Assembly (NCBI GenBank): GCA_964513235.1 | Contig: CAZEMI010000017.1 | Coordinates: 13,835 to 77,834 of the forward strand | Direction of reading: 5' to 3' | DNA from: an uncultured Acidobacterium sp. | Lineage (GTDB): Bacteria; Acidobacteriota; Vicinamibacteria; Vicinamibacterales; UBA2999 | Length of the DNA: 64,000 nucleotides | In this document: positions 7,020 through 62,888 of the stretch, piece after piece | How positions within the stretch are numbered: position 1 is the first letter of the stretch | How the letters are laid out: every line of letters begins with the position of its first letter | The notes under the pieces: generated by a model | Told to the model about the DNA's origin: nothing | What the model saw: the letters and a program-made list of their open reading frames with translations, nothing else | Database searches by the model: none | Translations under genes and position numbers: made by a program

Positions 7020-7035
7020 TGAGGGCTTGAGGGCG

Positions 7036-8289: not shown

Positions 8290-8342
8290 GTGTTTTAGTT
8301 TTCAACTTTTAACTTTTGATTTTTGACTTCTAACTTCTAACT
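8290..8342. repeat. AT-rich heptamer-like tandem repeat filling the murB-murA spacer
   Basis: On the minus strand it reads AGTTAGA AGTTAGA AGTCAAAA ATCAAA AGTTAAA AGTTGAAA ACTAAAACAC. The composition is strongly AT-rich in an otherwise GC-rich window. Confidence 0.8.
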
Positions 8343-13285: not shown

Positions 13286-13305
13286 CCTTCGACTCCGCTC
13301 AGGGT
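13284..13305. repeat. REP-like hairpin, copy A (conserved loop TCGACTCCGCTC)
   Basis: ACCCT-TCGACTCCGCTC-AGGGT in the nagZ-ldcA spacer. It overlaps the ldcA GTG. Confidence 0.7.
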
Positions 13306-13307
13306 TG

Positions 13308-47900: not shown

Positions 47901-48793
47901 ACGAGGTAACGCGCGGCCCAATCGGGATACGGCGCCAGTTCCGGCCGACCCGAATGGGCCGGCATGTATCGGGTCAGTGCACCTTCTCTAAGGATGTCGA
48001 ACGTCGGCCCCATGTCGTTCACCACGGCGGCCACCAGCGGCAGATAGGGCGGCAAAGCCTTGGTCGTGTTCAGCGAGGCGATGTCGGGAGTGATGATGGC
48101 CGACATCGCTCCGGATGGTCCGATCGTCTTGGTATGCCGCCAACGCGTGAGGTAAAAGTGCTCGATGCCGAGCCGGGAAAACGACGGCTGAACGGGATTA
48201 TCCACCCAGATAGTGGCGTCATACGTCACCGTGCTCGCGCCAATTTGGTCGAGCATGTTCTCCACCGACACGTCGGCACGGCCGCTGCCGTCGTTGTAGC
48301 TGCGCACATCGAAATTGATGCGCAAGAACGGATGCGGGATCCCGCCGGCATTGGGCGCCACGACATGGCGCGTCTCCTGCACCAGCGGTCCCTTGAGCCA
48401 ATAGTCACCAGGCGCCGACGGGGCAACCGCGCTGTGAGGCGTGCCGTTGATCGACATGTCCACCGAAACGTTGCGAGGGATGGGCGTGAAATCGCCCAGC
48501 TCTGACGGCGCCGGGTAAATGGCGTAGTTGTTTTCGGCCGGGACCTGCACCGTGAGAATGGCAAACTTGATTGAACCGCCAGGCCAGCGGTTTTTGACGT
48601 CGGTCTGCGTGGTAAGCGATCCGACCTGAAGTCCATCGTAGGCCGAACCTTCTGGGACGGCTTGGCCGAACGTTGCCCAACCAGTACTCAAGTGGACCGT
48701 GCCTATGGGATCCGGCACCGCCGCAAACATGGCGCGGCTGACGAGAACCAACAACAGAAGTGCAACAACGCCGTAGTGAGCGCGACGGCTCAT
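44948..48793 (-). CDS. Large secreted multidomain protein: PcRGLX/YetA-like N-terminal region + TSP3-type Ca-binding repeats + Ig/cadherin-like (He_PIG-type) domains
   Basis: About 1281 aa from the ATG at 48793, with GGAGGA 8 nt upstream. A signal peptide (HYGVVALLLLVLVSRAMFAAV) leads into an N-terminal region (NRWPGGSIKFAIL) and a helical toroid-like region (AHQPSIAYVPYLLTGDRYYAEEMAFWANY). Asp-rich repeats follow (DNCPAVANPDQANHDPDAQGDACD, DNDLDGLNNEGFPN). C-terminal repeats include DGDTLTFTVTGLPQGLTW and DGDRLEFHVVTLPPGLEFD. Confidence 0.8.
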   Translation of the reverse strand: MSRRAHYGVVALLLLVLVSRAMFAAVPDPIGTVHLSTGWATFGQAVPEGSAYDGLQVGSLTTQTDVKNRWPGGSIKFAILTVQVPAENNYAIYPAPSELGDFTPIPRNVSVDMSINGTPHSAVAPSAPGDYWLKGPLVQETRHVVAPNAGGIPHPFLRINFDVRSYNDGSGRADVSVENMLDQIGASTVTYDATIWVDNPVQPSFSRLGIEHFYLTRWRHTKTIGPSGAMSAIITPDIASLNTTKALPPYLPLVAAVVNDMGPTFDILREGALTRYMPAHSGRPELAPYPDWAARYLVHKDIDQKRFVLANGDLSGSWPIHVREPEDGTSAHAGVGAENLVSLNLRPWLWLDDRAENLASCCGIDFVRGTPMPLGTGTENPVPGSGQSPLNPDNAHQPSIAYVPYLLTGDRYYAEEMAFWANYGMMKTSPENGVRGADGILGNDNETRGVAWALRNLVDAAAYYPDASPVRNYLRDKVTANLQWLDDYVHNQPATNPLKIPWIGFRPEPGMVAMWEMNYVAWAIDRASKQGFEGGLAHRDVIAKLQLDLFRNTPAYPRTSTLTNTLDFSQINGEVYPVGSQIPWGAPFTLQVAEFTGDPNDPDSWWAHNTPFTTLEQIRDATQGDPFNHRPYAGYYGPEARLNLMIGVEEGWPGAEDAHDYLFQFIGIDVAACGNLGNGDDRPDLACRAGWALDFYLAAPGGGEADGDGDGVFDAADNCPAVANPDQANHDPDAQGDACDDNDDNDSFDDAAEIAAGSDPLNAASTPEVCDTIDNDLDGLNNEGFPNTDGTDDADCIDTDDDNDGHSDVAEGLAGSDPLNAASTPEVCDAVDNDLDGLNNEGFPNNDNDDDADCVDDDDDNDGVPDADDPFPFDNTPPGDDVTVDTPQADITFDTITDPGTTLVTPTQVDPGSVPAGFSIAGLPAFNVTTTAKFSGPIVLCFNVSSLSLAEPQFALLRVLHGEGGVFVDRTVLPNDFATQKVCARVMELSPFVIASVVAVNGAPSVDPIAQQTSQEDMAIAPLVITGSDPDGDTLTFTVTGLPQGLTWTPGNNNITIAGTPTQADDVNVEVTVSDGTDSATTSFLWIVTAAPSQISLTNPDSQSNTEGEKVRLELQWSAPGSGNKHFKRPTFRAENLPRGLHIGRHDGVISGHVSRRGERGPEEVTVTMRLRGEEVSQTFLWTILPKNHAPRIKHLNDQESKVGQDLELKLSAFDQDGDRLEFHVVTLPPGLEFDPAGLIFGTPTGKGHYRAVVTVSDGHATDTCDFEWTIKAPKDDKPKK
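46261..46527. repeat. 93-bp near-identical direct duplication inside the giant gene (period 174 bp = 58 codons)
   Basis: 46261-46353 and 46435-46527 differ at 2 positions (GACCGCG versus GATCGTG). They encode AGSDPLNAASTPEVCDxxDNDLDGLNNEGFPN. Confidence 0.9.
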
Positions 48794-48833
48794 AAAACGA
48801 TCCTCCAAGGTTTGCGGTAGACGGCGGCGGCGT

Positions 48834-48849
48834 TGCAAAACACCTTCCG
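48834..48849 (-). promoter_or_regulatory. Weaker sigma-54 promoter candidate for the giant gene
   Basis: On the minus strand it reads CGGAAGGTGTTTTGCA. The GG/GC spacing is correct, the -12 element TTGCA is good and the -24 element is poor. The -12 C lies 42 nt upstream of the ATG at 48793. Confidence 0.3.
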
Positions 48850-49175: not shown

Positions 49176-50243
49176 ATGCGATTCGATGGAACCGCCCAAC
49201 TTTTGGGCGAGAGTGCGGTTATTCGTGAGCTGCGGGATGAAATAGGGCGCGTCGGCGGCACCGACGCGAAGATCCTCATCACCGGCGAAAGCGGCTCCGG
49301 TAAGGAAGTGGTCGCGCGACAGCTCTGGGCGAACAGTAAGCGCTCGAGCCGGCCGTTTGTCGCCGTCAACTGCGCGGGCCTGCCCGAAACCCTGCTCGAA
49401 TCCGAGCTATTCGGACATGTCCGCGGCAGCTTTACCGGTGCCTTCCGCGACAAGCCCGGCAAGTTGGAAATCGCCGACGAAGGCACCTGCTTCATGGATG
49501 AAATCGGGGAAATGACCCTGCGCATGCAGGGCCTGCTGCTCCGCTTCTTCGAGACCGGCGAAATTCAAAAGGTCGGCGCACACCGCTCGGGCAGCCGCCT
49601 GGACGTCCGCACCATCGCGGCGACCAACGCCAACCTGCCCGAAATGATTCAGAAGGGGCTTTTCAGAGAAGACCTCTTCTACCGCCTCAACGTGATTCAC
49701 CTGATTGTGCCGTCCCTACGCGAGCGGAAGGACGACCTGCCGGTGCTCATCGAGCATTTCGTGGCGCGGCTCTCGCAACCCGGCATCCACGCGGCGCGGG
49801 CGATCTCGCCGGCCGCCGTGGCTCTGCTGAAGGAATACCACTGGCCTGGCAACGTCCGCGAACTGCAGAACGTGATCGAGCGGATGCTCATCCGTTGCCG
49901 CACCGATGTGATCGGCGGCGACGACGTGCCACTCAAGATTCGCGAAAGCCAGCCGCTGACGCCGGCGCCGTTCCGTGAACGCCGGCGGACGATCGTGGAC
50001 GACCTCTATCAGCGGATGACCTCCGAACAGCATTCGTTCTGGACCACCGTGTATCCGCTATACATGCAGCGCGAGATCACCCGCACCAGCGTGCGCGACC
50101 TCGTGCGCCGCGGCTTACAGGACTCCAACGGCAGCTACAAGGTGGTCGCGCGCCTGTTCAACATGGAACAGAACGACTACAAGAAGTTCCTCAATTTCCT
50201 CCGCAAGCATCACTGCCAGCCGTCGTATCGGGAGTTCCGATGA
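49176..50243 (+). CDS. Sigma-54 enhancer-binding protein lacking any N-terminal sensory/receiver domain
   Basis: 355 aa. The AAA+ core begins within about 10 residues of the start ([39 protein letters not shown]). It has a GAFTGA variant (GSFTGA) and ESELFGH. The C-terminal HTH-like segment ([27 protein letters not shown]) diverges from the Fis type. A GGAG Shine-Dalgarno sequence lies 8 nt upstream. Confidence 0.88.
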
Positions 50244-50860
50244 TCAACCGTCTCATCGGCGCCGGTGTCGTGCTCGCGGTCGCCTCGACGGGTGCTCACG
50301 CCCAAGAGGCCCGCCAATCGGAGCATCCGGTGGTGGCGGCCGCCGGCGGCAGCGCTCCCGTGGCGCCTGGGCTGCCATCCGGCTACGTGATCGGCGCCGA
50401 CGATGTGCTGTCGATCGTGTATTGGCGTGAAAAAGAGATGTCGGCCGAGGTGACCGTGCGGCCCGACGGCAAAGTGGCGCTGCCGCTCATCAACGACCTG
50501 AGTGCGGCCGGCCTCACGCCGGAAGCCTTCCGCGACAAAGTGATCGAAGCGGCGCGCCGTTTCGTGGAAGACCCGAACCCGACGGTGATGGTCAAGGAGA
50601 TCAACAGCCGCCGCGTGTTCATCACCGGGCAAGTCGAGAAGCCGGGACCGTATCAGTTGAATCACTCGGTGACAGTGCTGCAACTGATCGCCATGGCCGG
50701 CGGCCTGAAGGAATTCGCGCGCGGCAAGAACATCACCGTGCTCCGGACCGAGGGTGGCCAGCAGGTGGTGCACCGCTTCAACTACCAGGACGCGTTGATC
50801 CGCAAGAATCTCCAGCTGAACATCGAGCTGAAGCCGGGCGACACGATTCTCGTCCCCTAA
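50240..50860 (+). CDS. Polysaccharide export protein (Wza/Poly_export + SLBB type)
   Basis: 206 aa with a signal peptide ([13 protein letters not shown]), [14 protein letters not shown]...[14 protein letters not shown] and a SLBB-like C-terminus. The ATGA overlaps the EBP stop. Confidence 0.85.
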
Positions 50861-50879
50861 CCGGATTGACGGTTTGGAC

Positions 50880-52157
50880 ATGCGCCCCCGCCTCCCTGTT
50901 CCGTTGCTGGCCCTTGTCGTCGCCCTGTCGGTGGCGGGTGCGAACGCGCAACAGGCTCGGAGACCGTTCAGAACCGAGTTCGGCCCAGGCGAGCGAGACG
51001 AGCAGCGCGCGGATCAGCTGGTGCTGACGGGCGGCACCTACGCCGGGGCCGACGACACGTCGCGATTGGCGGGGGCCGCGTTGCTCGATGAAACGCTGCA
51101 AAGCGGACGCATGCATCAAGGCGGCAACGTGTCGCTGCGGTATGTCCGGCGCCGCCCGAGACTCTCGCTGTCCGCGTCCGGCGGGTCGTCAGTGCGCTAT
51201 TACCATTCGCTGAATCGCATCGGCACGCAGCGCCACTCGGTGTCGGCCTCGGGCGAGTGGGTCGCCAGCCGCCAGCTGTCGTTTCAGTTCGGACAGGATG
51301 TCAGCTATTCCCCGTCGTACCACCTGTCGTTCGCCGCCGCACCGGACATCGGTGCCGAGGCGCCGGCCGATCCGGGATCGCTCGACTACGACCTGAGTAG
51401 GAGCAAGCAGTTCATGCTCGGGTCGTTCGCCAGCGCCAGGTACGTCCTGAGCCCGAGCCGTGAGATGACGGCCGGCTACGGCCTGAGCTACACGAACTAT
51501 CTGACCGCGCAACAGCCCGACTTCGGCATCCAGCAGGCCTCGTTTGGTTTCTCGCAGCGGCTGGCCACTGGCGTGGCCCTCAAGTTGGGGTACGGCGTTG
51601 GCACGGGCACGGGCACGGGCCTTGGCGAGGGTGTGCGCCAGATCATCGATGCGGGCGTGGCGTTCGATCGATCGATCTCGATCTCGCCGCGAACCATCGT
51701 CGGGTTCAACTCGGGCTCCGCGATCGTCAACACCGACGGCGGCCGCCAGGTGGAGCTGATTGGCAATCTGAATGTCCGCCGGCGGCTGAGCCCGCGCTGG
51801 ACGGCGTCGATCGCGTATCAACGCGGCCTCATGGCGATCGACGGCGTGCCGAATCCGCTCACGACCAACACCATGACCGCCGACGTGAGCGGGTTCCTCG
51901 GCATGACGACGAGCGTCACCATCCGGCCGGTCTATACGTGGGGGGCCGACGTGAACGACGCGACCCAATCTTTTCGCAACAGCACGAGCATGGCCCGCGT
52001 GCAGACGGCACTGGGACGCCACTTGGCGGCATTCGCCGAATACATCTACTACGACCATCGGTTCGGCGCCATCGTCGGGCTTCGCCCGTCGCTGGCGGTT
52101 GACACGCGCCGGCACGGATTGCGGACCGGCGTGACGTTATGGTCGCCGCTGCGCTAG
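50880..52157 (+). CDS. Putative outer-membrane beta-barrel protein of EPS loci
   Basis: Signal peptide MRPRLPVPLLALVVALSVAGANAQ, alternating beta-strand-like pattern and a C-terminal ...GLRTGVTLWSPLR. It resembles the uncharacterised barrel protein of PEP-CTERM-type loci (from memory). Confidence 0.6.
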   Translation: MRPRLPVPLLALVVALSVAGANAQQARRPFRTEFGPGERDEQRADQLVLTGGTYAGADDTSRLAGAALLDETLQSGRMHQGGNVSLRYVRRRPRLSLSASGGSSVRYYHSLNRIGTQRHSVSASGEWVASRQLSFQFGQDVSYSPSYHLSFAAAPDIGAEAPADPGSLDYDLSRSKQFMLGSFASARYVLSPSREMTAGYGLSYTNYLTAQQPDFGIQQASFGFSQRLATGVALKLGYGVGTGTGTGLGEGVRQIIDAGVAFDRSISISPRTIVGFNSGSAIVNTDGGRQVELIGNLNVRRRLSPRWTASIAYQRGLMAIDGVPNPLTTNTMTADVSGFLGMTTSVTIRPVYTWGADVNDATQSFRNSTSMARVQTALGRHLAAFAEYIYYDHRFGAIVGLRPSLAVDTRRHGLRTGVTLWSPLR

Positions 52158-52170
52158 CGAAGGAGACGTC

Positions 52171-53727
52171 ATGCTGCCCGGCCGCAAATACACGCCCGAA
52201 GACATTGCCGCGATTGCGTGGCGCCGCAAGTGGATGGTCATCTCGGTCGTCGCGATGCTGACGACGGCGGCGATCACAGCGTCGATGCGGCTGCCGGACC
52301 TGTATCGATCCGAGACCCTGATTCTGGTCGTGCCGCAGCGCGTGCCGGAAAGCTACGTGCGCTCGACGGTCACGATGCGGATCGAGGATCGCCTGCGCTC
52401 ACTGCGCCAGCAGATCCTGAGCCGCAGCAATCTCGAGCGCATCATCAACGATTTCCAGCTCTTCGACGAGGACGTCAAGAAGCGGCCGATGGAAGTGATT
52501 GTCGAGGAGATGCGCCAGCGCGTCATCGTCGACACCGTGCGCGAAGACACCTTCAAGGTGTCCTATATCTCCGAGGTGCCGCGGACGGCGATGATTGTCA
52601 CCGACCGGCTGGCGGCGATGTTCATCGAGGAGAACCTGCGCGATCGCGGGCAGCTGGCCGACGGCACGAACGACTTCCTCGAATCGCAGCTCGCCGGCGC
52701 GCGCCAGCGCCTGGTCGGACACGAACAAAAGCTCGAAGCCTACCGGCGGCTCAACTCGGGCGAGCTGCCGTCGCAGCTCCAGTCGAACCTGCAGGTGATC
52801 CAATCCACGCAGAACCAGATTCAAAACCTGAACGAGTCGATCAACCGCGATCAGGATCGCCGCCTGGTGCTCGAGCGATCGCTGGAGGATGCCAATTCCA
52901 GCACGCCCATCGAGCCCGGCAACGCCAGGAACACGGTGCTGGACACGCCCGAAGTGCGCGCCATCGATCAGCTCGAGATCGCGCGCGGCGAGCTGCGCGA
53001 CCTGCTGCTGCGACTCAGGCCCGAACATCCCGACGTGGTGGCGAAGACCAGGACGATCAGGCAGCTCGAAGCCAAGGTCCAGGGCACCGCTTCGAACGGG
53101 ACCGCCCCCGGCCGCAACGAGCCCTACGTCTCCGGCGCCGAGCTGGTGAGGCGCGCGCGCGGCCGCCAGACGCAGCAGGAAATGGCCAAGCTCGACGAGC
53201 AGATCGCGGGCAAAGAGGCCGACATGCGCGACCTGCGGCTGCGCATGAGCGACTACCAGCGCCGCGTCGACGCCGTGCCCGGCCACGAGTCGGAGCTGAT
53301 CGGCCTGATGCGCGACTACGACACGCTGCAGAAGGTCTACGCGGATCTGCTGGCCAAGAAAGAGAACTCGCAGATCTCGGCCAACCTCGAACGCCAGCAG
53401 GTGGGTGAACAGTTCAAGGTGATCGATCCGGCGCGCCTGCCGGAGGCACCGTTCAGCCCGAACCGGCTGCGCATCGCGCTGATCGCCGCGGCGCTGGGAC
53501 TGTTCCTCGCGGTCGGGGTGCTCGGCGTCATCGAATATCGCGACATGACGCTGCGCACCGAAGACGAGATCGTGCGCACGCTGGTGCTGCCGGTGATCGC
53601 CGCCATTCCGCTGATGGCCGCGGTTGCGGACACACGGCGGCGCCAGCGCAATCAACTCCTGATGGGCGCGGCGACGGCCATGACCCTCGTCGGCCTGACC
53701 GTCGCGGTCTGGCGGATGGTGCAGTAG
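52171..53727 (+). CDS. Polysaccharide chain-length determinant (Wzz/GumC/PCP family)
   Basis: 518 aa with an N-terminal Wzz motif and TM (AWRRKWMVISVVAMLTTAAI...YRSETLILV), a long coiled-coil periplasmic region and a C-terminal TM. Confidence 0.85.
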   Translation: MLPGRKYTPEDIAAIAWRRKWMVISVVAMLTTAAITASMRLPDLYRSETLILVVPQRVPESYVRSTVTMRIEDRLRSLRQQILSRSNLERIINDFQLFDEDVKKRPMEVIVEEMRQRVIVDTVREDTFKVSYISEVPRTAMIVTDRLAAMFIEENLRDRGQLADGTNDFLESQLAGARQRLVGHEQKLEAYRRLNSGELPSQLQSNLQVIQSTQNQIQNLNESINRDQDRRLVLERSLEDANSSTPIEPGNARNTVLDTPEVRAIDQLEIARGELRDLLLRLRPEHPDVVAKTRTIRQLEAKVQGTASNGTAPGRNEPYVSGAELVRRARGRQTQQEMAKLDEQIAGKEADMRDLRLRMSDYQRRVDAVPGHESELIGLMRDYDTLQKVYADLLAKKENSQISANLERQQVGEQFKVIDPARLPEAPFSPNRLRIALIAAALGLFLAVGVLGVIEYRDMTLRTEDEIVRTLVLPVIAAIPLMAAVADTRRRQRNQLLMGAATAMTLVGLTVAVWRMVQ

Positions 53728-53731
53728 CCCC

Positions 53732-54733
53732 ATGTACGAGTCCTTTTACGGCCTTCGTGAGCGCCCGTTCGAGCTGACGCCGAATCCGCGCTTCCTGTTC
53801 ATGACGCCCCGCCATCGCGAGGCGTTGACCACGCTGGTGTACGGACTCACGGCGCGCACCGGCATCGCCTTGCTGGTTGGCGAAGCCGGCACCGGCAAGA
53901 CCACGCTCGTCCACGCCGCGCTGCAATCGCAACGCACGCAGGAAGGCATGGCCGTGTACCTGAACAATCCGTCGCTGACGCGCCAGGAGTTCCTCGAATT
54001 CCTCGCCGCCGGATTCGGCTTGAGCGCCGACGCGGCACGGTCGAAGACGCGGTGCCTCGCCGACCTCACCGACTTGCTGGTGTCGCGGCATTCGGCCGGC
54101 GGCATGACCGCGCTCGTGATCGACGAAGCACAATGCCTCCCGGACGACCTGCTCGAGGAAGTGCGGCTGCTCGCCAACATCGAGTCCGCGTCGGAGAAGC
54201 TGCTCTCGATCGTACTCGCGGGCCAGCCGGAGGTGGCGACGCGGCTCAGCCAGCCGTCGCTGCGCCAGTTGAAGCAACGCATCGGCTTGCGGTGCGCGCT
54301 CGCGGCGCTGGACCTGCAGAACACGAGTGCCTACATTGCCGCGCGCGTGCGCATCGCCGGCGGTGAGGCGGCGCAGCTGTTCACGCCCGAGGCGGTGTGC
54401 GAGATCCAGGAGCGCTCGCGCGGCATCCCGCGAACGATCAGCGTGATTTGCGACAACGCGCTGGTCTCGGGCTTTGCGCTCGACCGCAAGCAGATCGATC
54501 GCGAACTCATCGTCGAAGTCTGCGCGGACTTCGACTTCGCCCTGCCCGCCGCTGACGAACCACCGCCGAGGACGGCCGCCGACCTGCTGCCCGCAGTGCG
54601 GCCGGAGCCGGCGGTGCCGTCGCCCCCTGCGGCGGGCACCGTTCCTCGACCTGGAGATGAGCTACTCGCGCGCCTGGCCCGCATCCGCGGCATGGCGGGC
54701 GCAGCCGAAGAGGCGGATGGGACACAGACCTGA
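53732..54733 (+). CDS. ExeA-like AAA ATPase of EPS loci
   Basis: MYESFYGLRERPFELTPNPRFLF..., Walker A GEAGTGKTT and Walker B LVIDEAQ, with a Pro-rich C-terminus. Confidence 0.85.
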   Translation: MYESFYGLRERPFELTPNPRFLFMTPRHREALTTLVYGLTARTGIALLVGEAGTGKTTLVHAALQSQRTQEGMAVYLNNPSLTRQEFLEFLAAGFGLSADAARSKTRCLADLTDLLVSRHSAGGMTALVIDEAQCLPDDLLEEVRLLANIESASEKLLSIVLAGQPEVATRLSQPSLRQLKQRIGLRCALAALDLQNTSAYIAARVRIAGGEAAQLFTPEAVCEIQERSRGIPRTISVICDNALVSGFALDRKQIDRELIVEVCADFDFALPAADEPPPRTAADLLPAVRPEPAVPSPPAAGTVPRPGDELLARLARIRGMAGAAEEADGTQT

Positions 54734-54735
54734 CT

Positions 54736-55656
54736 ATGGCTCGACTCGCTGATGCATTACAGCGCGCCAATCGGACGCGCATGGAACAGGACGGGCCACC
54801 CCCGGCGCCGCCGCCGGCGGCGGAGGAAACGTCGCCGGTCGTGATGCGGCCCCGCGCCGCCGAACGGCCGGCCGCCGCCCACGGTTCGGCGTCGCTGCTC
54901 GGCTTTCCGAAAGGGGAGCCGCAGACAGCCGGATGGCGCTCCAATCCCGAGCTGGTCGGAAAGCTCGTGGGCACCGATGGCGTGTCTGCGGGGGCACTCG
55001 AGCAATACCGAAAACTTGCCGCCACCCTGCATCACACGCAGGAGGAACGCGGCATCCAGGTGGTGATGACCGCGAGCTCGTTGCCGGGCGAAGGCAAGAG
55101 CCTCACCGCCGCCAACCTCGCGCTCACCTTCAGCGAGTCCTACCAGCGGCGCGTGCTGCTGGTCGACGCCGACTTGCGCCGGCCGACGGTGCAGCGCCTG
55201 TTCGACGTGGCCACCATTGACGGCCTCGATGCCGGACTCAAGGCCGAGCACGACCGGCCGATGCCGCTCACGCGGATGTCGGAACGGCTCTGGGTGCTGC
55301 CGGCGGGACGGCCCGACCCCGATCCGCTGAGCGGGCTCACGTCGGATCGCATGCGGCGCTTCGTCCAGGAGGCGCGCACCTTGTTCGACTGGGTGATCAT
55401 CGACACCCCCCCGGTGTCGCTGCTGCCCGACGCAAACCTGCTGGCGGCCAACGTGGATGGCGTCTTGCTCGTGGTCCGTTCCGGCAAGGCGCCCTTCCAG
55501 CTGGTGAAGCGGACCGTCGACACCATCGGTCACGACCGCATCCTGGGCATCGTGATGAACGCCGTGGACTTCAGGCATGACCGCAACGCCGGCGGCTACT
55601 ACGAGTACTACGGTTACGGCTACGGCTACGGCCATTACGGAGCGGGGAAGAAGTAG
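54736..55656 (+). CDS. BY-kinase (CpsD/CapB-type tyrosine autokinase)
   Basis: Walker A SSLPGEGKS, Walker A' VLLVDADLRRP, Walker B DWVIIDTPP and a C-terminal Tyr cluster YYEYYGYGYGYGHYG. Confidence 0.85.
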   Translation: MARLADALQRANRTRMEQDGPPPAPPPAAEETSPVVMRPRAAERPAAAHGSASLLGFPKGEPQTAGWRSNPELVGKLVGTDGVSAGALEQYRKLAATLHHTQEERGIQVVMTASSLPGEGKSLTAANLALTFSESYQRRVLLVDADLRRPTVQRLFDVATIDGLDAGLKAEHDRPMPLTRMSERLWVLPAGRPDPDPLSGLTSDRMRRFVQEARTLFDWVIIDTPPVSLLPDANLLAANVDGVLLVVRSGKAPFQLVKRTVDTIGHDRILGIVMNAVDFRHDRNAGGYYEYYGYGYGYGHYGAGKK

Positions 55657-55661
55657 GGGCC

Positions 55662-57050
55662 ATGGCGAAGGGGCTGATTCAAGACGCGACCTGGCGGTCG
55701 TCGACACTGATCGTCATGGAGAGCGCGCTCATTCTGGGCGCCGTGGCGACCGCGGTCTATGTGCAGGTCGGCGTCGCGACCGGCACCGCCGGCCTGGCCG
55801 GCCTGCTGCCAAAGGCCTTCGTGATCGTGATCGTCTGCCAGCTGTGCCTGTATTGGGGCGATCTCTACGACCACCCGCATTCGAGCGGCAGCTACGTCGA
55901 GCTGATGATTCGCACGCTACAGGCGCTCGGCGCGACCTGCCTCTTGCTGGCCGCGATCTATGCGTTGTTCCCCGATCTGGTGATCGGCCGCGGTGTGCTG
56001 ACCGTCGTCGCGCTGCTCACCACGAGCGGCGTCATCAGCTGGCGGATGATGTTCGGGTGGCTGTCGCGCCGCGTCGGACCGCGCGAGCGGCTGTTGATGG
56101 TCGGCGCGAGCAGCGCCGGCCTGGCGCTCGCCCGCGAGCTGCACGACAACGACGAGGCGGGCGTGCAGATCGTCGGCGTGGTCGACAACGACGGCGCCAC
56201 CGCGAGCGACCCGAGGCTGCTCTGGCTTGGCGGGATTGAAGAGATTCCATCGATCGTCCGCGCTCGCGGCGTCGATCGCGTGGTCGTCAGCCTCGCCGAT
56301 GCCCGCGGCAAGCTGCCCATGGACAAGATGCTCGAGATGAAGCTCGATGGGGTGTCGTTCGACTATCTCGCCTCGGTCTACGAGGAATACACCGGCAAGA
56401 TCGCCGTCGAGAATCTTCGTCCGAGCTGGTTGATCTTCTCGCCCGGATTTCGCAAGACGCGCCGCCTGCTGGCCCTCAAGCGGGCGCTCGATGTGGTGTC
56501 GGCACTGGCCGGGTTGATCCTGTCGGCGCCGCTTCTGGTGGGGCTCGCGGCGATCATCAAGATCACCTCGCCGGGGCCGGTGTTCTATTCACAGCGGCGC
56601 GTCGGCCGCGACTCGCGCATCTTCACCGTCTACAAGCTGCGGTCGATGTGCCACGACGCCGAGCGGCAGACCGGTCCCGTGTGGGCGGCACGCGCCGGCG
56701 ACACGCGGATCACCTGGATCGGCCGTTTCATGCGCCGCACGCGCCTCGACGAGATCCCGCAGTTCTGGAACATCCTGATTGGCAACATGAGCTTCGTCGG
56801 GCCGCGGCCGGAGCGGCCCGAGTTCGTGCGGTCACTCTCCGAGCAGATTCCGTTCTATCGCCAGCGGCACGTGATCAAGCCCGGCCTCACGGGCTGGGCG
56901 CAGGTGCGCTACACCTACGGCGCCACGGTGGAAGAGGCGATGGAGAAACTCCAGTACGACCTCTACTACATCAAGCACCTGTCGGTGACGTTCGACCTGT
57001 TCATCATCTTCGAGACCATCAAGACCGTCCTGTTGCGGCGGGGGAATTAA
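55662..57050 (+). CDS. Undecaprenyl-phosphate sugar phosphotransferase (WbaP/EpsB-type initiating enzyme)
   Basis: 462 aa with N-terminal TM helices, a Rossmann-like linker and the Bac_transf core (KRALDVV...PGPVFYSQRRVG..FTVYKLRSM...DEIPQFWNILIGNMSFVGPRP). Confidence 0.9.
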   Translation: MAKGLIQDATWRSSTLIVMESALILGAVATAVYVQVGVATGTAGLAGLLPKAFVIVIVCQLCLYWGDLYDHPHSSGSYVELMIRTLQALGATCLLLAAIYALFPDLVIGRGVLTVVALLTTSGVISWRMMFGWLSRRVGPRERLLMVGASSAGLALARELHDNDEAGVQIVGVVDNDGATASDPRLLWLGGIEEIPSIVRARGVDRVVVSLADARGKLPMDKMLEMKLDGVSFDYLASVYEEYTGKIAVENLRPSWLIFSPGFRKTRRLLALKRALDVVSALAGLILSAPLLVGLAAIIKITSPGPVFYSQRRVGRDSRIFTVYKLRSMCHDAERQTGPVWAARAGDTRITWIGRFMRRTRLDEIPQFWNILIGNMSFVGPRPERPEFVRSLSEQIPFYRQRHVIKPGLTGWAQVRYTYGATVEEAMEKLQYDLYYIKHLSVTFDLFIIFETIKTVLLRRGN

Positions 57051-57949
57051 TGGCCGACGCCGCCAACGCCGCGATCATCAATGCGATGACCGTCGACGTC
57101 GAAGACTACTTTCACGTCAGCGTGTTCGACGGCGTGATCCCCCGCCATACGTGGGATCGCCTCGACAGCCGCGTCTGCGGCAACACCACGCGGCTGCTGA
57201 AGATTTTCGAGGCGACCGGCGTTCGGGCCACCTTCTTCATCCTGGGCTGGGTCGCCGAGCGTTTCCCGTCGCTCGTCGGCGAGATCGCCGCGGCCGGCCA
57301 CGAGATCGCGTCGCACGGCTACGGGCATCGCCTGGTCTACGACTTGACGCCGGACGCCTTCCGCGACGATGTCCGGCGGTCGAAGGATCTGCTCGAGTCG
57401 GCCACTGGCGTGCCGGTCTACGGCTACCGGGCGCCGAGTTATTCGGTGACGGCGCGATCGTTGTGGGCGCTCGACGTCCTGATCGACGAAGGGTTCCGTT
57501 ACGACGCCAGCATCTTTCCGATTCACCACGATCGCTACGGCATCCCGACCTCGCCGCGCCACCCGTACGTGTTGCAGCGCCACTATTCGCTGATCGAAGC
57601 ACCGGGGTCGACGGTGCAGTGGGGTCCGTTCAACCTGCCGGTGGCGGGCGGCGGCTATTTTCGGATCCTGCCGTATGCCTGGACGCGATGGGGCATCACG
57701 CGCCTCAACCAGGCGGAGCGCGCACCGGCGATCTTCTATCTGCATCCGTGGGAGATCGATCCCGGGCAACCGCGGCTGCCCGCGAGCCTGCTGGGCCGCT
57801 TCCGTCACTACTTCAATCTCTCGCAGACCGAGTCGCGCCTGCGCGCGTTGCTCAGCGACTTCCGGTTTTCGACCATGGCCTCGGTGCTCCGGCGCGCCGG
57901 GTTCGACCTTCACGACACCAGCCCCGCGCCGCTGCCCTACGTCTGGTAG
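57050..57949 (+). CDS. Polysaccharide deacetylase (EPS-locus subfamily)
   Basis: NAMTVDVEDYFH...ATFFILGWVAERFP...GHEIASHGYGH. The ATG at 57050 overlaps the upstream stop (TAATG). Confidence 0.85.
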   Translation: MADAANAAIINAMTVDVEDYFHVSVFDGVIPRHTWDRLDSRVCGNTTRLLKIFEATGVRATFFILGWVAERFPSLVGEIAAAGHEIASHGYGHRLVYDLTPDAFRDDVRRSKDLLESATGVPVYGYRAPSYSVTARSLWALDVLIDEGFRYDASIFPIHHDRYGIPTSPRHPYVLQRHYSLIEAPGSTVQWGPFNLPVAGGGYFRILPYAWTRWGITRLNQAERAPAIFYLHPWEIDPGQPRLPASLLGRFRHYFNLSQTESRLRALLSDFRFSTMASVLRRAGFDLHDTSPAPLPYVW

Positions 57950-57967
57950 CGCCGCCCGGAGAGACCC

Positions 57968-59062
57968 ATGTCCGCCTCGGTTGCCGCAGTCCCCCGGCTT
58001 GCACGTTCGGCGTCGACGGTGCCGCCGGCCGTTGACGTCGCACTGTCGACAAACCCCTCGCCCGCGGCGTGGGACCAGTTCGCGCGACACACGCCAGATG
58101 CCGGGCTCTATCACCTGTGGGGCTGGCGCCGCGTCATCGAAGAGACGTTCGGCCACGAGACCATCTACCTGTCGGCCACGCACGCCGGCGCGATTGTCGG
58201 CATCCTGCCGCTCGCAATTTTCCGCAGCCGGATCTTCGGGAACTTCGCGGTGTCGCTGCCATTCGTTGACCAGGGCGGCATCTGCGCGGCCGACGAGGGC
58301 GTGAGACGCGTCCTGGCCAATTGCGCCGCGTCGGTTGCCGCCAGCCGGCACTTGTCTCACGTGGAGCTGCGCCATGTGGCGCGGCAGCAGCCCGAGCTGC
58401 CGGTGCGGCAGCACAAGGTCGGCATGACGCTGCGCCTGGTGCCGGATCTCGGCAAGGCGTGGACGCTGCTCGATCGCAAGGTGCGCAACCAGGTTCGCAA
58501 GGCGGAAAAGGGCGGACTGACCGAGCGGCGCGGCGGGCTGGAGTTGCTGGACGCGTTCTACGACGTGTTCTGCCACAACATGCGCGATCTCGGCACGCCC
58601 GTCTATCCGCGCCTCTTCTTCGAGCGCATCATCTCGACCTTCGCCGATTCATCCACCGTGTTCGTGGTCGAGGATCCACGGCGCACACCCGTCGCCGCCG
58701 CGATCGGTCTGGTGCATCGAGACTCCTTCGCGGTGCCGTGGGCCTCGTCGCTGCGCGAGTTCCGGGCGCAGAGTCCGAACACGCTGTTGTATTGGCGGAT
58801 GATCGAGCACGCCATCGCCTCGGGATTGACGACTTTTAACTTCGGCCGTTCGACACCTGGCGAAGGCACGTATCAATTCAAGGAACAATGGGGCGCGCGC
58901 CCCACACCGCTGCACTGGGAATACGTCCTCGAGTCAGGACGGCCGCTCCCGGATCTCACCCCCAAGAATCCGAAGTTCCGCGCCGCCATCGCCGCCTGGA
59001 AGCGGCTGCCGGTGCCGGTGACGCGATGGATCGGCCCCCACATCATTCGCTCGATTCCCTAG
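57968..59062 (+). CDS. FemAB/GNAT-like protein of EPS loci
   Basis: 364 aa (WDQFARHTPDAGLYHLWGWRRVIEETFGH...LLYWRMIEHAIASGLTTFNFGRSTPGEGTYQFKEQWGA). Confidence 0.8.
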   Translation: MSASVAAVPRLARSASTVPPAVDVALSTNPSPAAWDQFARHTPDAGLYHLWGWRRVIEETFGHETIYLSATHAGAIVGILPLAIFRSRIFGNFAVSLPFVDQGGICAADEGVRRVLANCAASVAASRHLSHVELRHVARQQPELPVRQHKVGMTLRLVPDLGKAWTLLDRKVRNQVRKAEKGGLTERRGGLELLDAFYDVFCHNMRDLGTPVYPRLFFERIISTFADSSTVFVVEDPRRTPVAAAIGLVHRDSFAVPWASSLREFRAQSPNTLLYWRMIEHAIASGLTTFNFGRSTPGEGTYQFKEQWGARPTPLHWEYVLESGRPLPDLTPKNPKFRAAIAAWKRLPVPVTRWIGPHIIRSIP

Positions 59063-59079
59063 GGGCCACACGCGATCGC

Positions 59080-60348
59080 GTGTACACGTCGGTTGCCGTT
59101 GCCTTCGTCGCGCTCGCGACCTGGGGCAGCTGGTTTCCGTTCGTGTTCCGTCCGTTGCCGTGGGATGTCGCCATCGCGTGGCTGTGGTGGAGCGCTACGC
59201 CCGCACAATTCTCGCTGACCGACGCGCTCTCGAACCTGCTGCTGTTCGTGCCGATTGGCGTGTTCGCGGCATCAGTGCTCGGCCGCCGCGGACGAGTGCG
59301 CGACAGCGTGGCCGTGATCGCCCTCGGCGCGGCGCTCAGTCTTGCGCTCGAACTGGGCCAGCTGCTGGTGCCGTGGCGAATCCCCTCGGTGCTCGACATC
59401 GCCTTCGAGACCGCCGGCATGGTGGTGGGGGTGTTGGTACGGCGCGTGGCCGCGGCGGAGCTCGACGCTCTGACGGGCCGGCTGATCATGGCCTGGCGCA
59501 CGGCCGGCATTCGCGAGCGCGTGCTGTGGGCCTACACGGCCACGTTCGCCATCGCGTGGCTGATGCCATTCGACTTCACCATCCGTCCGGATGAGATCGG
59601 CGACAAGTACGAGCACAAACGGCTGGTGTTGCCGTGGATGCCGTCGCCCGATGCGGCCACCACGGCCGAGTCATGGCTGACCGCGGCTGCCGCGGTGCCG
59701 CTCGGCTGGGCCTTCGTGCTATGTGCGAGCGATGCAGGCTGGCGACGCTCGGTGGCCGCGGCCATCGCCGACGCCGCGGCGCTGCTGGTGGCGCTGACCC
59801 TGTTGCAAGTGACGGTGTTCTCGCGCACCACCGACATCACTCTCACGTTCGCCGCGTTCGGCGGCGCTGCCGCCGGCGCCATCATGGCGGCCCGCATGAC
59901 GGTTCGGACGGTGCGCCCGCGGGACCACTCGTCGATGCGGTTCGCGGCGCTCGCCGCCACCTGGATCGCGGCGGTGATTGCGATCGAATGGTGGCCGCTT
60001 CAGTTCAATCTCGACGTCGATCGCATCCGGCAGCACGCCGCCGCCTGGTCGTACGCGCCGTTTCGCGCGCCAGCCACGGCCGCGGACGTCGTGCCGGGCG
60101 CCCTGCTCGCCATTGCCGGTGCCGTGATCGCATCGCCGGGCAGCCGCGCGGCGTACGCGCGCCTCCACCTGATGGCCGCACTCATCGCCGCCGGCGCGCT
60201 CTTCGCGACGATTGAGGCCGGACACCTCCTGGCCGAGACCCACACCCCCACGCTGGCATCGGTTGCGATTAAGCTCCTCGCATTCGCCGTCACGCTCGCC
60301 TTCGCGAGCGCGGCGCAGCCGATCTGGTCGTCGCAGGCACGGTCATGA
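59080..60348 (+). CDS. Polytopic membrane protein with three VanZ-like repeats (start uncertain: GTG 59080 or ATG 59026)
   Basis: LTDALSNLLLFVPIG...ELGQLLVPWRIPSVLDIAFETAGMVVG is VanZ-like. Two further degenerate copies follow (LLQVTVFSRTTDITLTFAAFGGAAAG and IEAGHLLAETHTPTLASVAIKLLAF). There is no exosortase-type CSG motif. Confidence 0.55.
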   Translation: MYTSVAVAFVALATWGSWFPFVFRPLPWDVAIAWLWWSATPAQFSLTDALSNLLLFVPIGVFAASVLGRRGRVRDSVAVIALGAALSLALELGQLLVPWRIPSVLDIAFETAGMVVGVLVRRVAAAELDALTGRLIMAWRTAGIRERVLWAYTATFAIAWLMPFDFTIRPDEIGDKYEHKRLVLPWMPSPDAATTAESWLTAAAAVPLGWAFVLCASDAGWRRSVAAAIADAAALLVALTLLQVTVFSRTTDITLTFAAFGGAAAGAIMAARMTVRTVRPRDHSSMRFAALAATWIAAVIAIEWWPLQFNLDVDRIRQHAAAWSYAPFRAPATAADVVPGALLAIAGAVIASPGSRAAYARLHLMAALIAAGALFATIEAGHLLAETHTPTLASVAIKLLAFAVTLAFASAAQPIWSSQARS

Positions 60349-62888
60349 TGTCGGCGCCGCTCACCGTGTCGATTCCCGCCACGCCGAATCGCGGCGTGCT
60401 ATGTGAGCCGCTGACCTTCGGGATGCCCTTCCCTGCGGGGCTGGTCCGCGACGAGAGCGATATTCATCTTCACGACGACGCCAGCCGCGTCACCGCGCTC
60501 CAGGCTCGCGCGACCGAGCGATGGCCTGACGGCAGCATCCGCTGGGCGTTGCTCGATTTCCTGCTCACGGGTGCGCCGGCGCCGGAGCGGCAGTTCTCGG
60601 TTCGTCTCGGCGCCGCCGGCCCGCAGCCGGCCGCGCCTCCGCTCACCATCGACGCCGCGGCGCGCAAGATCACAATTGATACCGGGGTCGCATCGTTTGT
60701 CGTCAAGACGGGACCTGCATTCCCATTCGCCTCCGTGCACGTGCTGGGGGTGCCCGCACTCGGCGCGGCGGGGTGCGCATTCGTGACGACCACGCCGGAC
60801 GGGCGGACGCTCGAGACGCGGGTCACCGACGTGGCCGTCGAAGAGCGGGGCGCATTGCGAGCGACCGTGCGGATCCACGCCAGCGTGGGCCCGCCCCGGC
60901 ATCCATCCTTGCTGCTGACTGCCCGCGTGCAGTTCATTGCCGGGTCGGCGGCGGTGCGCCTGGCGGTCACGCTGCGCAACGTCAAGCGCGCGCAGCATCC
61001 GGGAGGCATCTGGGAGTTGGGCGACCGCGGATCCGTCTACCTGCGCGACGTCTCGCTGCGGCTTGGTCTTCCCGGCGCCATCACGCAGACCGAGTGCGCT
61101 CCCGAGATCGGCACGCCCGCTGAATCCTGCCCGGCGCCGGTGGAGCTGTACCAGGATTCGAGCGGCGGCGCCAACTGGCACCACACCGCCCACGTCGATC
61201 GGCACGGCGAGATTCCGTGCACATTTTGCGGCTACCGGTTGCACGGCGACGGCCGCCGCGCCGACGGGCGGCGCGCGACGCCGCTGATGATCGCGCGGCA
61301 CGCCACCGGCATGGCCGGCATCGCGGTCGAGCACTTCTGGCAGAACTGGCCGCAGGCGATCGCGATTGAACCCGACGCCGTCGTCTGGCGGATGCTCCCC
61401 GGACACACGGCCAACGAACACGAGTTGCAAGGCGGCGAACAGAAGACCCATCGCTGCACGCTGATTTTCGGCGACGATCCCTGCGCGCGCGACGCGGGTA
61501 TTTGGGGTCGGATACCGGCGTTTGCGCGGCTCACGCCGGCATGGTATTGCGCCAGCCAGGCCGCCGGCGTGCTGACGCGCGCCGGATCCGATCCATATCA
61601 GCAGCTCGTCGACGCCGCCATCGAGGGTCCCGGTTCATTGCTGCAGAAGCGCGAGGACGCCGACGAGTACGGCTGGCGGCACTTCGGCGACATCTACGCC
61701 GATCACGAGAATGCGTTCAGCGGACTCGATGTGCCGGTGGTCTCGCACTACAACAACCAATACGACGCCATCGCCGGGTTCGCGCTGCAGTTCATGCGCT
61801 CGGGCGACCCGCGCTGGCACACGATGATGAACGAGCTGGCGTGGCACGTCGCCGACATCGACATCTACCATACGGATCGCGACAAGAGCGCGTACAACCA
61901 CGGCTTGTTCTGGCACACGGCGCATTACGTGACCGCCGGGCGCTCGTCGCATCGATCCTTCCCGAAGGACCCGCGCGTCAAAGGTGGCGGCCCGGCCAAC
62001 GAGCACAACTACACCGCCGGACTGCGCCTGCACTGGCTGCTCACCGGCGACTCGCCATCGCGCGAGGCGGCGATCGAGCTGGCCACGTGGGTGATCCAAA
62101 TGGACGACGGGCGCCGTACCTTCCTGCGCTGGTTGAGCACCAGCAACACGGGACTTGCGAGCCAGACCTACTCGCCGTCATTCCACGGACCCGGCCGCGG
62201 CGCCGGCCATTCGATTCTCGCGCTACTCGACGGGCATCGCCTGACGCACGACGACCTGTACCTGGCGAAGGCCGAACAGTTGGTGCGCCGCTGCATTCAT
62301 CCGGCCGACGACATCGAACGGCTGGACCTGCTCGATGCCGAGCGGCGCTGGTCGTACACCGTGTTCCTGCAGGTCCTGGGGCGGTATCTGGATTATCGCG
62401 TCGAACTCGGGCTGGTCGATGAGCACTACACCTACGCCCGCGCCGCGCTCGTGCACTACGCGCGCTGGATGATCGCCAACGAGTATCCGTATCTCGACAA
62501 GCCCAGGATGCTCGAATATCCCACCGAGACGTGGGCGGCGCAGGACATGCGCAAGTGCGACGTGCTCCTCGTCGCCGCGGGTCACGTCTCCGGCGACGAG
62601 CGTCGCATGTTCCTGTCGACCGCGGCACGGTTCTTCGAGTACTCAGTCACCACGCTGCTGTCGATGCCGGCGCGAACCCTCGCGCGTCCCCTCGTGCTGA
62701 TGCTGACCAACGGCTACCAGTACTTGTCGCCTGATGCTTCCGCGCCGCGGCCCGAGGGGCCGCTCGTCGCCGACTTCGGCGCGCCGGCGATATTCGTGCC
62801 ACAGAAAGCGCTGGTCAAGCGGCGGATTGCGATGACCGCCGGCGCGGTGGTCTTCGTGATCACTGCCACGGTCCTCGCACTGATCTGA
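60345..62888 (+). CDS. PcRGLX/YetA-like putative glycan lyase/hydrolase with C-terminal TM anchor (paralog of the giant protein N-region)
   Basis: 847 aa with N-terminus LTFGMPFPAGLVRDESDIHLHDD...ERWPDGSIRWALLDF, a helical region NEHNYTAGLRLHWLLTGDSPSREAAIELATW and a C-terminal TM helix IAMTAGAVVFVITATVLALI. The ATGA overlaps the upstream gene. Confidence 0.6.
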   Translation: MMSAPLTVSIPATPNRGVLCEPLTFGMPFPAGLVRDESDIHLHDDASRVTALQARATERWPDGSIRWALLDFLLTGAPAPERQFSVRLGAAGPQPAAPPLTIDAAARKITIDTGVASFVVKTGPAFPFASVHVLGVPALGAAGCAFVTTTPDGRTLETRVTDVAVEERGALRATVRIHASVGPPRHPSLLLTARVQFIAGSAAVRLAVTLRNVKRAQHPGGIWELGDRGSVYLRDVSLRLGLPGAITQTECAPEIGTPAESCPAPVELYQDSSGGANWHHTAHVDRHGEIPCTFCGYRLHGDGRRADGRRATPLMIARHATGMAGIAVEHFWQNWPQAIAIEPDAVVWRMLPGHTANEHELQGGEQKTHRCTLIFGDDPCARDAGIWGRIPAFARLTPAWYCASQAAGVLTRAGSDPYQQLVDAAIEGPGSLLQKREDADEYGWRHFGDIYADHENAFSGLDVPVVSHYNNQYDAIAGFALQFMRSGDPRWHTMMNELAWHVADIDIYHTDRDKSAYNHGLFWHTAHYVTAGRSSHRSFPKDPRVKGGGPANEHNYTAGLRLHWLLTGDSPSREAAIELATWVIQMDDGRRTFLRWLSTSNTGLASQTYSPSFHGPGRGAGHSILALLDGHRLTHDDLYLAKAEQLVRRCIHPADDIERLDLLDAERRWSYTVFLQVLGRYLDYRVELGLVDEHYTYARAALVHYARWMIANEYPYLDKPRMLEYPTETWAAQDMRKCDVLLVAAGHVSGDERRMFLSTAARFFEYSVTTLLSMPARTLARPLVLMLTNGYQYLSPDASAPRPEGPLVADFGAPAIFVPQKALVKRRIAMTAGAVVFVITATVLALI

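Follow-up and report, generated by a model that had tools for sequence, protein, structure and literature searches.

A triple-module VanZ protein encoded next to a PcRGLX-like protein in an XrtA-type exopolysaccharide operon of an uncultured Vicinamibacterales bacterium

The locus and its counterparts in relatives

The analysis concerns a 64-kb stretch of DNA (64,000 nucleotides, hereafter the window) from contig CAZEMI010000017.1 of an uncultured Acidobacterium sp. of the order Vicinamibacterales (assembly GCA_964513235.1), in which the gene at 59026-60348 encodes a polytopic membrane protein built of three tandem VanZ modules. The gene is the tenth of 11 in an exopolysaccharide (EPS) operon of the XrtA/PEP-CTERM type, and its stop codon overlaps the start of a gene for a PcRGLX-like protein. 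The features are listed below in window coordinates, with lengths in amino acids (aa) or nucleotides (nt).

49176-62888, plus strand: XrtA/PEP-CTERM-type EPS operon of 11 genes, recognized by NCBIfam matches
57047-57949, plus strand: XrtA-system polysaccharide deacetylase (TIGR03006, 405 bits, cut-off 276)
57968-59062, plus strand: FemAB-family XrtA/PEP-CTERM-associated protein (TIGR03019, 376 bits, cut-off 260)
59026-60348, plus strand: triple VanZ/Lipocone gene; product of 440 aa with 12 transmembrane (TM) helices (start and stop of the open reading frame (ORF), Pfam VanZ, AlphaFold2 (AF2) model)
60345-60348, plus strand: ATGA stop/start overlap, read from the sequence; the VanZ TGA (60346-60348) overlaps the ATG of the next gene at 60345
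60345-62888, plus strand: PcRGLX-like protein of 847 aa (Pfam PcRGLX_1st, E=2.3e-10; PcRGLX_2nd, E=2.7e-6)

The operon opens with a sigma-54 activator, a polysaccharide export protein, an outer-membrane protein, a chain-length determinant, an ExeA-like ATPase and a tyrosine autokinase, and continues with a priming glycosyltransferase, the XrtA-system deacetylase, the FemAB-family protein, the triple VanZ protein and the PcRGLX-like protein. It carries the signature of an XrtA-type EPS operon: TIGR03006, TIGR03019 and, for the priming glycosyltransferase, TIGR03013 (432 bits, cut-off 393) were all matched above their equivalog cut-offs. The export protein, chain-length determinant, ATPase and kinase matched XrtA models below the respective cut-offs. 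After the PcRGLX-like gene, a gap of ~180-250 nt precedes an unrelated large gene.

The VanZ reading frame has coding-type composition, with a G+C content at third codon positions of 0.83, and the ATG at 59026 precedes the stop codon of the FemAB gene (59060-59062) by 37 nt. An independent gene call on a Logan contig with an identical locus (L016) yielded the same 440-aa product, which replaces the ~420 aa of the first-pass annotation; the N-terminus MDRP(P/A)HH is common to homologues. The ATGA overlap is a predicted translational coupling of the VanZ gene to the PcRGLX-like gene, in keeping with the earlier proposal of a coupled, membrane-anchored partner. That partner lacks an N-terminal signal peptide, and its sole hydrophobic helix is formed by the last 20 residues, after KRR (...VKRRIAMTAGAVVFVITATVLALI before the stop). 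Because the only TM segment sits at the extreme C-terminus after KRR and no signal peptide precedes the protein, its bulk is probably cytoplasmic. For an EPS-operon protein with a lyase/hydrolase-like fold, such a tail-anchored, cytoplasmic placement is unexpected. A sequence search of the PcRGLX-like protein against PDB chains returned no match.

Close homologues of the VanZ protein were found in metagenome-assembled genomes (MAGs) of Acidobacteriota/Vicinamibacterales and in soil metagenomes. The block deacetylase–FemAB–VanZ–PcRGLX-like is present in nine genome or assembly loci (L001, L003, L004, L006, L007, L008, L014, L015 and L016), whose sources, where named, are Acidobacteriota/Vicinamibacterales; locus L005 starts at the VanZ gene, leaving only VanZ–PcRGLX visible. 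It also occurs in 35 of 80 metagenome loci that were retrieved with a distant family seed, likewise from Acidobacteriota/Vicinamibacterales wherever a source is given. Eight further metagenome loci show FemAB–VanZ with no PcRGLX-like gene detected, at least one of them ending at a contig edge. The full operon order was matched in L001, L007, L014, L015 and many metagenome loci, and the PcRGLX-like gene adjoins the VanZ gene in every syntenic locus. The linkage to the EPS operon on which the first-pass annotation depended is thus retained in relatives. In the contig of L001 (ENA contig_1945, 1169-9191), the genes for the export protein, chain-length determinant, ATPase, kinase and deacetylase are split by apparent frameshifts; these are probably long-read assembly errors, and the gene calls of this locus need care.

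Genes for a FemAB protein, a deacetylase, a chain-length determinant or AsnB are neighbours of more distant family members (24-32% identity) as well. Examples are L030 (186-9395), L046 (1-11332), L033, L036 and L040, where a distant triple VanZ gene is found near XrtA-type export, chain-length, ATPase, kinase or priming-transferase genes, or near FemAB/deacetylase genes, in other orders and with no PcRGLX-like gene. These neighbourhoods suggest a broader functional link between triple VanZ proteins and XrtA-type EPS genes.

The position after the deacetylase and FemAB genes had been taken in the first-pass annotation as the usual place of an exosortase. In Sphingomonas, xrtA is indeed near this pair (deacetylase, FemAB, TIGR03087 glycosyltransferase, xrtA, amidotransferase), but the rule is a loose one: in D. 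vulgaris pDV the gene after the deacetylase and FemAB genes encodes an aminotransferase, and xrtA is absent within 12 kb. The membrane ORFs of the window include no exosortase and no EpsI; they encode PlsY, PgpA, a flippase-like protein, a histidine kinase and comparable proteins. A search of all six frames of the window for PEP-CTERM-like C-termini gave two matches, both in non-coding frames. Precomputed Pfam annotations of the L001, L014 and L015 neighbourhoods (~10 kb on each side) contained neither PF09721 nor EpsI, and tblastn of the 80 metagenome loci with two exosortases produced no match at E<0.01.

A triple VanZ gene and an exosortase gene do occur together in L009 (1985-18436), from an unclassified bacterial MAG. 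Its 480-aa triple VanZ protein, 25% identical to the one described here, is encoded in an exosortase-type cluster comprising an exosortase (PF09721, E=3.5e-62), EpsI (DUF3485), two GT4 proteins and an AsnB-type amidotransferase, and continuing with the triple VanZ protein, a sulfotransferase, a beta-helix/chondroitinase-B-like protein, a Wzy_C/DUF5935 protein and a PcRGLX-like protein of 1064 aa with a FlgD_ig domain. Since VanZ and exosortase coexist in L009, the VanZ protein is better regarded as an accessory of the EPS system than as a substitute for the sortase. The presence of both partners in this MAG also extends the VanZ/PcRGLX pairing beyond Acidobacteriota.

Three VanZ modules and the wider family

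Pfam VanZ (PF04892) matched residues 62-139 of the protein at E=8e-16 (59.2 bits, gathering cut-off 30.1), and the AF2 model, built from 49 sequences (mean predicted local distance difference test score 88.3, predicted template modelling score 0.83), contains 12 TM helices; both agree with the initial description of a VanZ-like polytopic membrane protein. The modelled secondary structure repeats three times, as H1, a short helix, H2, H3 and H4, with starts at residues 12, 162 and 301. Scanned one at a time against Pfam, module 1 matched VanZ at E=5e-13 (50.2 bits), module 2 had VanZ as its top match at a sub-threshold E=0.013, and module 3 gave no match.

59059-59451, plus strand: module 1, residues 12-142, a canonical VanZ-1-like Lipocone, predicted catalytic; key residues by motif conservation D66, N70, E109, Q112, R118, S121, D124 and E128
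59452-59508, plus strand: linker helix, residues 143-161, extending H4 of module 1 (AF2 helix 122-159)
59509-59898, plus strand: module 2, residues 162-291, a divergent VanZ copy with Q261, R267 and D270 kept
59563-59661, plus strand: H1-H2 loop of module 2, residues 180-212 (MPFDFTIRPDEIGDKYEHKRLVLPWMPSPDAAT), predicted periplasmic, with a short AF2 helix at 188-196
59926-60312, plus strand: module 3, residues 301-429, a degenerate VanZ copy, dispensable in relatives

The repeats were compared with hhalign after an alignment of 20 full-length homologues had been cut into residues 14-150, 160-300 and 301-432. Module 1 aligned with module 2 (probability 93%, E=3.6e-7) and with module 3 (85%, E=6.7e-6), colinearly across ~110 columns in both pairs; modules 2 and 3 gave no significant alignment at this depth. 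With a deeper alignment of 90 sequences, in which distant family members were included, all pairs were recovered: 98.6% and E=1e-15 for modules 1 and 2, 99.0% and E=2e-18 for modules 1 and 3, and 99.7% and E=4e-25 for modules 2 and 3. Six controls with a reversed partner stayed at a probability of ≤1% and E≥0.056. The internal triplication that had been suspected from three recurring motif strings, which map to residues 109-135, 259-284 and 396-420, is therefore well founded.

Both VanZ motifs reported for the first module are present, as S63..D66...N70.LLF.P.G78 and E109.GQ112.....R118..S121..D124...E128..G131...G135; in the latter, the Q-R spacing had been quoted one residue short. Within the operon clade (20 sequences), all eight motif positions of module 1 are kept in 20/20. 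Module 2 retains Q261, R267 and D270 in 20/20, with E at position 258 in 7/20 and D at 273 replaced; in the protein described here, T258 and L273 stand in place of the wider family's E and D. In module 3, E397 alone is conserved, and the remaining motif positions are occupied here by H400, H406, T409, S412 and K416.

Overall conservation has a different distribution. Pairwise identity averages 50% in module 1, 58% in module 2 and 44% in module 3, and module 2, with 29 invariant columns, is the most conserved of the three. Its H1-H2 loop (residues 180-212) is the most conserved block of the whole protein (77% mean pairwise identity, 13 of 33 columns invariant; consensus PFDFT[IL]RPDEI[GA]DK..HKRL.LP), and P181, D183, T185 and K194 of this loop are conserved in the wider family too. 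The linker (residues 143-161) has 37% identity and 0 invariant columns. Purifying selection does not simply follow the pattern of motif retention.

Loops rich in Arg and Lys were found at residues 86-90 (GRRGR), 233-242 and 292-300. By the positive-inside rule, these loops, the linker helix and both termini are predicted to be cytoplasmic. Because the basic residues cluster in loops on the opposite side, the conserved motifs are expected to be periplasmic, with D66/N70 (start of H2), E109/Q112 (end of H3) and D124/E128 (start of H4) predicted at the periplasmic membrane interface. The module-2 loop and a WWP...APFR loop of module 3 are likewise predicted at this interface. The single Cys, C233, stands in the non-CSG context LCAS, as had been observed before; it is Cys in 17/20 relatives and Val in 3/20, and its predicted place is the end of a TM helix on the cytoplasmic side. 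H197, in a predicted periplasmic loop, is the sole invariant His, which fits the earlier impression that the exosortase Arg/His motifs are absent.

A profile search over 1.84 billion representatives (clusters at 50% identity) placed the protein in a large family, with 9,900 matches at E≤1e-3, 2,876 at E≤1e-10 and 618 at E≤1e-30. Many matches are 430-500 aa long and aligned across all three modules, and in larger family members Pfam usually detects three VanZ stretches. Proteins of this wider family (~450 aa; soil metagenomes, Planctomycetota and others) resemble the present one in having 12 TM helices, in aligning end to end, in an identical module-1 motif and in a shared P-x-D-x-T...K in the module-2 loop. 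They differ in that all three modules are intact: the motif E-x2-Q-x5-R-x2-[S/D]-x2-D is kept throughout, whereas the operon clade keeps it in module 1 only, has lost residues in modules 2 and 3, and often has module 3 deleted. Among 84 distant members, module 1 has E in 84, Q in 83, R in 84, S in 76 and D in 84; seven of the eight motif positions are kept in 76-84 of the 84, and at position 128, 45 members have E and 36 have Q. The corresponding counts for E, Q, R, D and D are 82, 81, 71, 54 and 78 in module 2 and 82, 81, 67, 64 and 82 in module 3. A triplicated VanZ protein in an EPS operon had seemed unexplained; the triplication proves to be the architecture of a large family and is not peculiar to this locus.

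Natural fusions of the family include Wzy_C with three VanZ modules (P0098, 1035 aa) and three VanZ modules with Acyl_transf_3 (P0117, 883 aa). In relatives, Wzy_C is either a domain of its own fused to the triple VanZ protein, as in P0098, or a gene of its own, as in L009. Several other long family proteins (up to 1841 aa) carry unassigned extra regions.

Orthologues of ~300 aa that lack module 3 were found in four of the loci, with the PcRGLX-like gene directly after them or within ~30 nt.

L001, 10001-10906: two-module orthologue
L014, 10001-10864: two-module orthologue
L006, 7371-8210: two-module orthologue
L008, 7809-8659: two-module orthologue

After the 94%-identical P0001, the group closest to the protein consists of two-module forms, with 77-81% identity over modules 1-2. 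In a neighbour-joining tree, which is approximate and in which some short proteins are possibly assembly truncations, two-module forms branch at four or five distinct points between three-module forms, a scatter indicating that module 3 was lost repeatedly.

A two-module homologue outside the operon, P0062 (42% identity), was observed on a 3.2-Mb contig (L002, 10001-17983). It lies within 4-7 kb of Wzy_C/DUF5935 and asparagine-synthase genes, two further hallmarks of XrtA-type systems, and is adjoined by a gene for a He_PIG-domain protein, which is also found downstream of the operon in L014.

Predicted role and alternatives

VanZ has been placed in the Lipocone superfamily, which is defined by a four-helix core with a conserved polar pocket on H2, H3 and H4 (Burroughs, Nicastro and Aravind, eLife 2025, PMC12419801). 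In that work, VanZ-1 is characterized by an H2 Asn together with an H3 ExxQ as in the Skillet families, and its neighbourhoods are significantly associated with EPS genes of the Wzz, Wzc and WaaL types; the proposed role of VanZ is to cleave lipid-carrier-linked glycans or to transfer or release finished chains. Integral-membrane Lipocones are predicted there to act on outer-leaflet head groups, with which the periplasmic placement of the motifs described above agrees. Li et al., as cited in a bioRxiv preprint (10.64898/2026.09.16.752124), report a Ca2+-dependent lipid-linked oligosaccharide (LLO) pyrophosphatase activity for yeast Llp1, VanZ and E. coli YfiM, with essential residues H87/E128/D143/D147 in VanZ and H31/E72/D87/D91 in YfiM. 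With this activity and the EPS association in the literature, the view that VanZ functions are poorly understood, expressed in the first-pass annotation, is outdated.

Module 1 has the polar residues of the VanZ-1/Lipocone pocket, with N70 (and D66) on H2, E109-x2-Q112 on H3 and D124/E128/G131 on H4, all of them invariant and assigned to helices taken from the AF2 model. The spacing E109(+15)D124(+4)E128 equals that of E128/D143/D147 in VanZ and of E72/D87/D91 in YfiM, as a comparison of spacing and not an alignment.

On balance, and judging from sequence features, we favour with moderate confidence a periplasm-facing phosphoesterase of undecaprenyl-diphosphate-linked glycans, in which module 1 would be catalytic, module 2 a constrained non-catalytic partner and module 3 a dispensable relic. 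The protein would be an inner-membrane enzyme of the VanZ-1/Lipocone kind, with three tandem four-helix modules and both termini in the cytoplasm. The polar pocket of module 1 is predicted to hold a divalent cation at the membrane's periplasmic interface; its target would be the phosphate linkage in EPS intermediates that have been flipped while attached to undecaprenyl diphosphate. Either the finished or growing EPS chain would be released from its carrier, or surplus and dead-end intermediates would be destroyed and undecaprenyl phosphate recycled. Module 2, especially its periplasmic H1-H2 loop, probably assists, with no catalysis of its own, in substrate binding, capping or docking, and module 3 would be a decaying, dispensable copy. 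We envisage the protein as a fixed component of a Wzx/Wzy-type, XrtA-style EPS operon, most likely forming a stoichiometric pair with the tail-anchored PcRGLX-like protein.

Several observations weaken the case for the phosphoesterase. Foldseek searches of the PDB with the whole AF2 model and with a separate module-1 model returned nothing at E<0.5; human PSS1 (9b4e_A) was listed only at E=4.3, an outcome that speaks neither for nor against a fold like that of the solved Lipocones (PSS1/PTDSS1, TelC, Wnt, SAA). H4 of module 1 reads S-x2-D-x3-E against the canonical VanZ-1 D-x2-D-x3-N, the first Asp being replaced by Ser121, and H2 has Asn/Asp here where the residue mutated in VanZ and YfiM is His; given these deviations, activity or specificity may differ. 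Module 2 is more conserved than module 1, which would not be expected if module 1 alone were functional. Finally, the PcRGLX-like partner seems to be cytoplasmic, whereas the active site is predicted on the other side of the membrane.

A terminal transferase is a possible, though distinctly less probable, alternative. In the same pocket, transesterification would move the polymer or polymer-phosphate off undecaprenyl diphosphate; the acceptor might be a lipid anchor, a second glycan or part of the cell surface, for example, and the step would resemble those of WaaL or LCP proteins. This option has been proposed for VanZ families by analogy with the head-group exchange of PTDSS1/2 (PMC12419801) and is consistent with the fusion of family members to Wzy_C ligase/polymerase domains and with the lack of a WaaL-like gene among the 11 operon genes; the altered H4 (S..D...E) and the conserved module-2 loop could together make an acceptor site. 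However, the demonstrated activities of VanZ, Llp1 and YfiM are hydrolytic only, and no acceptor can be named. Since Wzy and Wzx are not encoded in the window, this locus does not allow the ligase question to be assessed.

More speculatively, the triple VanZ and PcRGLX-like pair might constitute the terminal module of a Wzy-dependent EPS pathway, in which module 1 detaches or transfers the polymer, the module-2 loop selects the chain and the partner couples the process to the cytoplasm. Should this doubtful proposal be correct, Vicinamibacteria would have an exosortase-independent XrtA-type system, and the pair would be a tractable candidate for the release or ligation step of non-lipopolysaccharide polymers.

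A non-enzymatic scaffold or pseudo-enzyme, whose modules bind lipid or partners and thereby organize the membrane complex, for example by docking the PcRGLX-like protein or the Wzx/Wzy/polysaccharide co-polymerase machinery, seems to us improbable. The predicted translational coupling and constant adjacency to the PcRGLX-like gene would suit it, as would the loss of motif residues in two of three modules, the peak of conservation in a loop of degenerate module 2 rather than in the catalytic pocket, and the existence of inactive Lipocones. Yet the eight pocket residues of module 1 are invariant across ~25-94% identity, a constancy that would be difficult to account for if the pocket neither catalysed a reaction nor bound metal, and the repeated loss of module 3 implies that scaffolding by repeat number is not required.

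A glycopeptide-antibiotic resistance protein acting on lipid II, like VanZ of Tn1546, is very unlikely. Membership of the VanZ family, the JGI label 'glycopeptide antibiotics resistance protein' and a weak NCBIfam vanZ-F match (20.8 bits against a cut-off of 375) point that way, but the gene has a fixed place in an EPS operon of a diderm phylum, no van genes occur in the window, and resistance contexts make up a small fraction of VanZ-1 (PMC12419801).

A highly divergent exosortase, rhombosortase, Wzy polymerase or O-antigen ligase in the exosortase slot can practically be dismissed: the protein is polytopic, it adjoins the FemAB and deacetylase genes that flank xrtA in classical loci, and one two-module relative has a sub-threshold Pfam Exosortase_EpsH match (E=0.017), but searches of Pfam (E≤1) and NCBIfam (E≤0.01) found no exosortase, rhombosortase, Wzy_C (PF04932) or O-antigen-ligase match, the Foldseek search of the PDB gave no WaaL-like or other match, the sole Cys is not invariant and lies on the cytoplasmic side, the three VanZ modules cover essentially the whole length, and the triple VanZ protein of L009 coexists with exosortase, EpsI and Wzy_C genes. 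Both the exosortase and the Wzy/ligase identities were rejected.

Compared with known systems, the protein shares with VanZ/Llp1 (PF04892; E. faecium VanZ, yeast Llp1) the four-helix core, the H3 Glu, acidic H4 residues at +15 and +19 and a glycan-assembly context with polyprenyl-diphosphate carriers. VanZ and Llp1 have one module, whereas the present protein has three (12 TM helices) with modules 2 and 3 degenerate; their context is the van cluster or the endoplasmic reticulum, whereas here it is an EPS operon and the function is predicted from sequence. E. coli YfiM (DUF2279) belongs to the same superfamily and has the E(+15)D(+4)D spacing, with Ca2+-dependent cleavage of lipid-diphosphate-glycans as the proposed chemistry, but it is small, with three predicted TM segments, and has no detectable sequence similarity beyond motif spacing. 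XrtA (PF09721/TIGR03109) is also a polytopic inner-membrane protein encoded near FemAB/deacetylase genes; it has no homology to the VanZ protein, its Cys/Arg/His triad is absent here, and the window holds no EpsI or PEP-CTERM substrates.

With the VanZ-1 family (PMC12419801), the protein has in common the H2 Asn, the H3 ExxQ and the reported neighbourhood of Wzz, Wzc-kinase and other EPS genes; that family includes a betaproteobacterial duplicated VanZ-1 with an inactive second copy, VanZ-i, which is a precedent for an active module followed by an inactive one. The operon partners given there are a ferredoxin, a lipase and a transpeptidase, in contrast to the deacetylase (TIGR03006), FemAB protein (TIGR03019) and PcRGLX-like protein found with the triplicated form. 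That paper and its accessible supplements make no mention of a triple VanZ protein, FemAB, PcRGLX or exosortase loci, and no paper in the literature that was searched has 'VanZ' and 'exosortase' together. Superfamily membership is already known, and the association with EPS genes was anticipated in general terms (PMC12419801). The widespread triple-module architecture with its stepwise degeneration in the operon clade, and the fixed pairing of VanZ with a PcRGLX-like protein in XrtA-type operons without an adjacent exosortase, appear to be undescribed.

Only recently was the cleavage of lipid-linked intermediates proposed and demonstrated for VanZ-type Lipocones, and the locus presents a VanZ-1 protein that is fixed and, by its ATGA overlap, translationally coupled in a well-defined EPS operon of an abundant soil phylum. 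To our knowledge, the release of Wzy-dependent capsules and EPS from the undecaprenyl-diphosphate carrier, and the clearing of dead-end intermediates, are unassigned for most systems. The natural series of three intact modules, one intact with two degenerate, and two-module forms points to the essential parts of the protein. The locus also corrects an annotation habit, namely the label 'glycopeptide antibiotics resistance protein' in an EPS context, and 'XrtA-associated' gene sets are seen to exist without an adjacent exosortase.

The operon start and upstream DNA

The sigma-54 activator that opens the operon (49176-50243, plus strand; 355 aa) begins at the AAA+ domain. It matches TIGR02915, a PEP-CTERM-box response regulator, below the cut-off and from profile position 140; given this starting point, it lacks the receiver domain. 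Relatives carry a distinct Response_reg gene immediately before the activator gene.

Upstream of the operon, an ORF of 1296 aa (44948-48838, minus strand) has a weak match (E=1e-6, far below the cut-off) to MtsC, a MYXO-CTERM protein of cell cohesion. The upstream 5-17 kb encodes peptidoglycan recycling and housekeeping functions. A peptidoglycan block at 7036-14408 on the minus strand comprises EPSP-synthase-family (MurA-like), MurB, Mur-ligase-family, LD-carboxypeptidase and GH3 genes; it is broken by genes with CT_A_B/CT_C_D carboxyltransferase domains and appears unrelated to the EPS operon.

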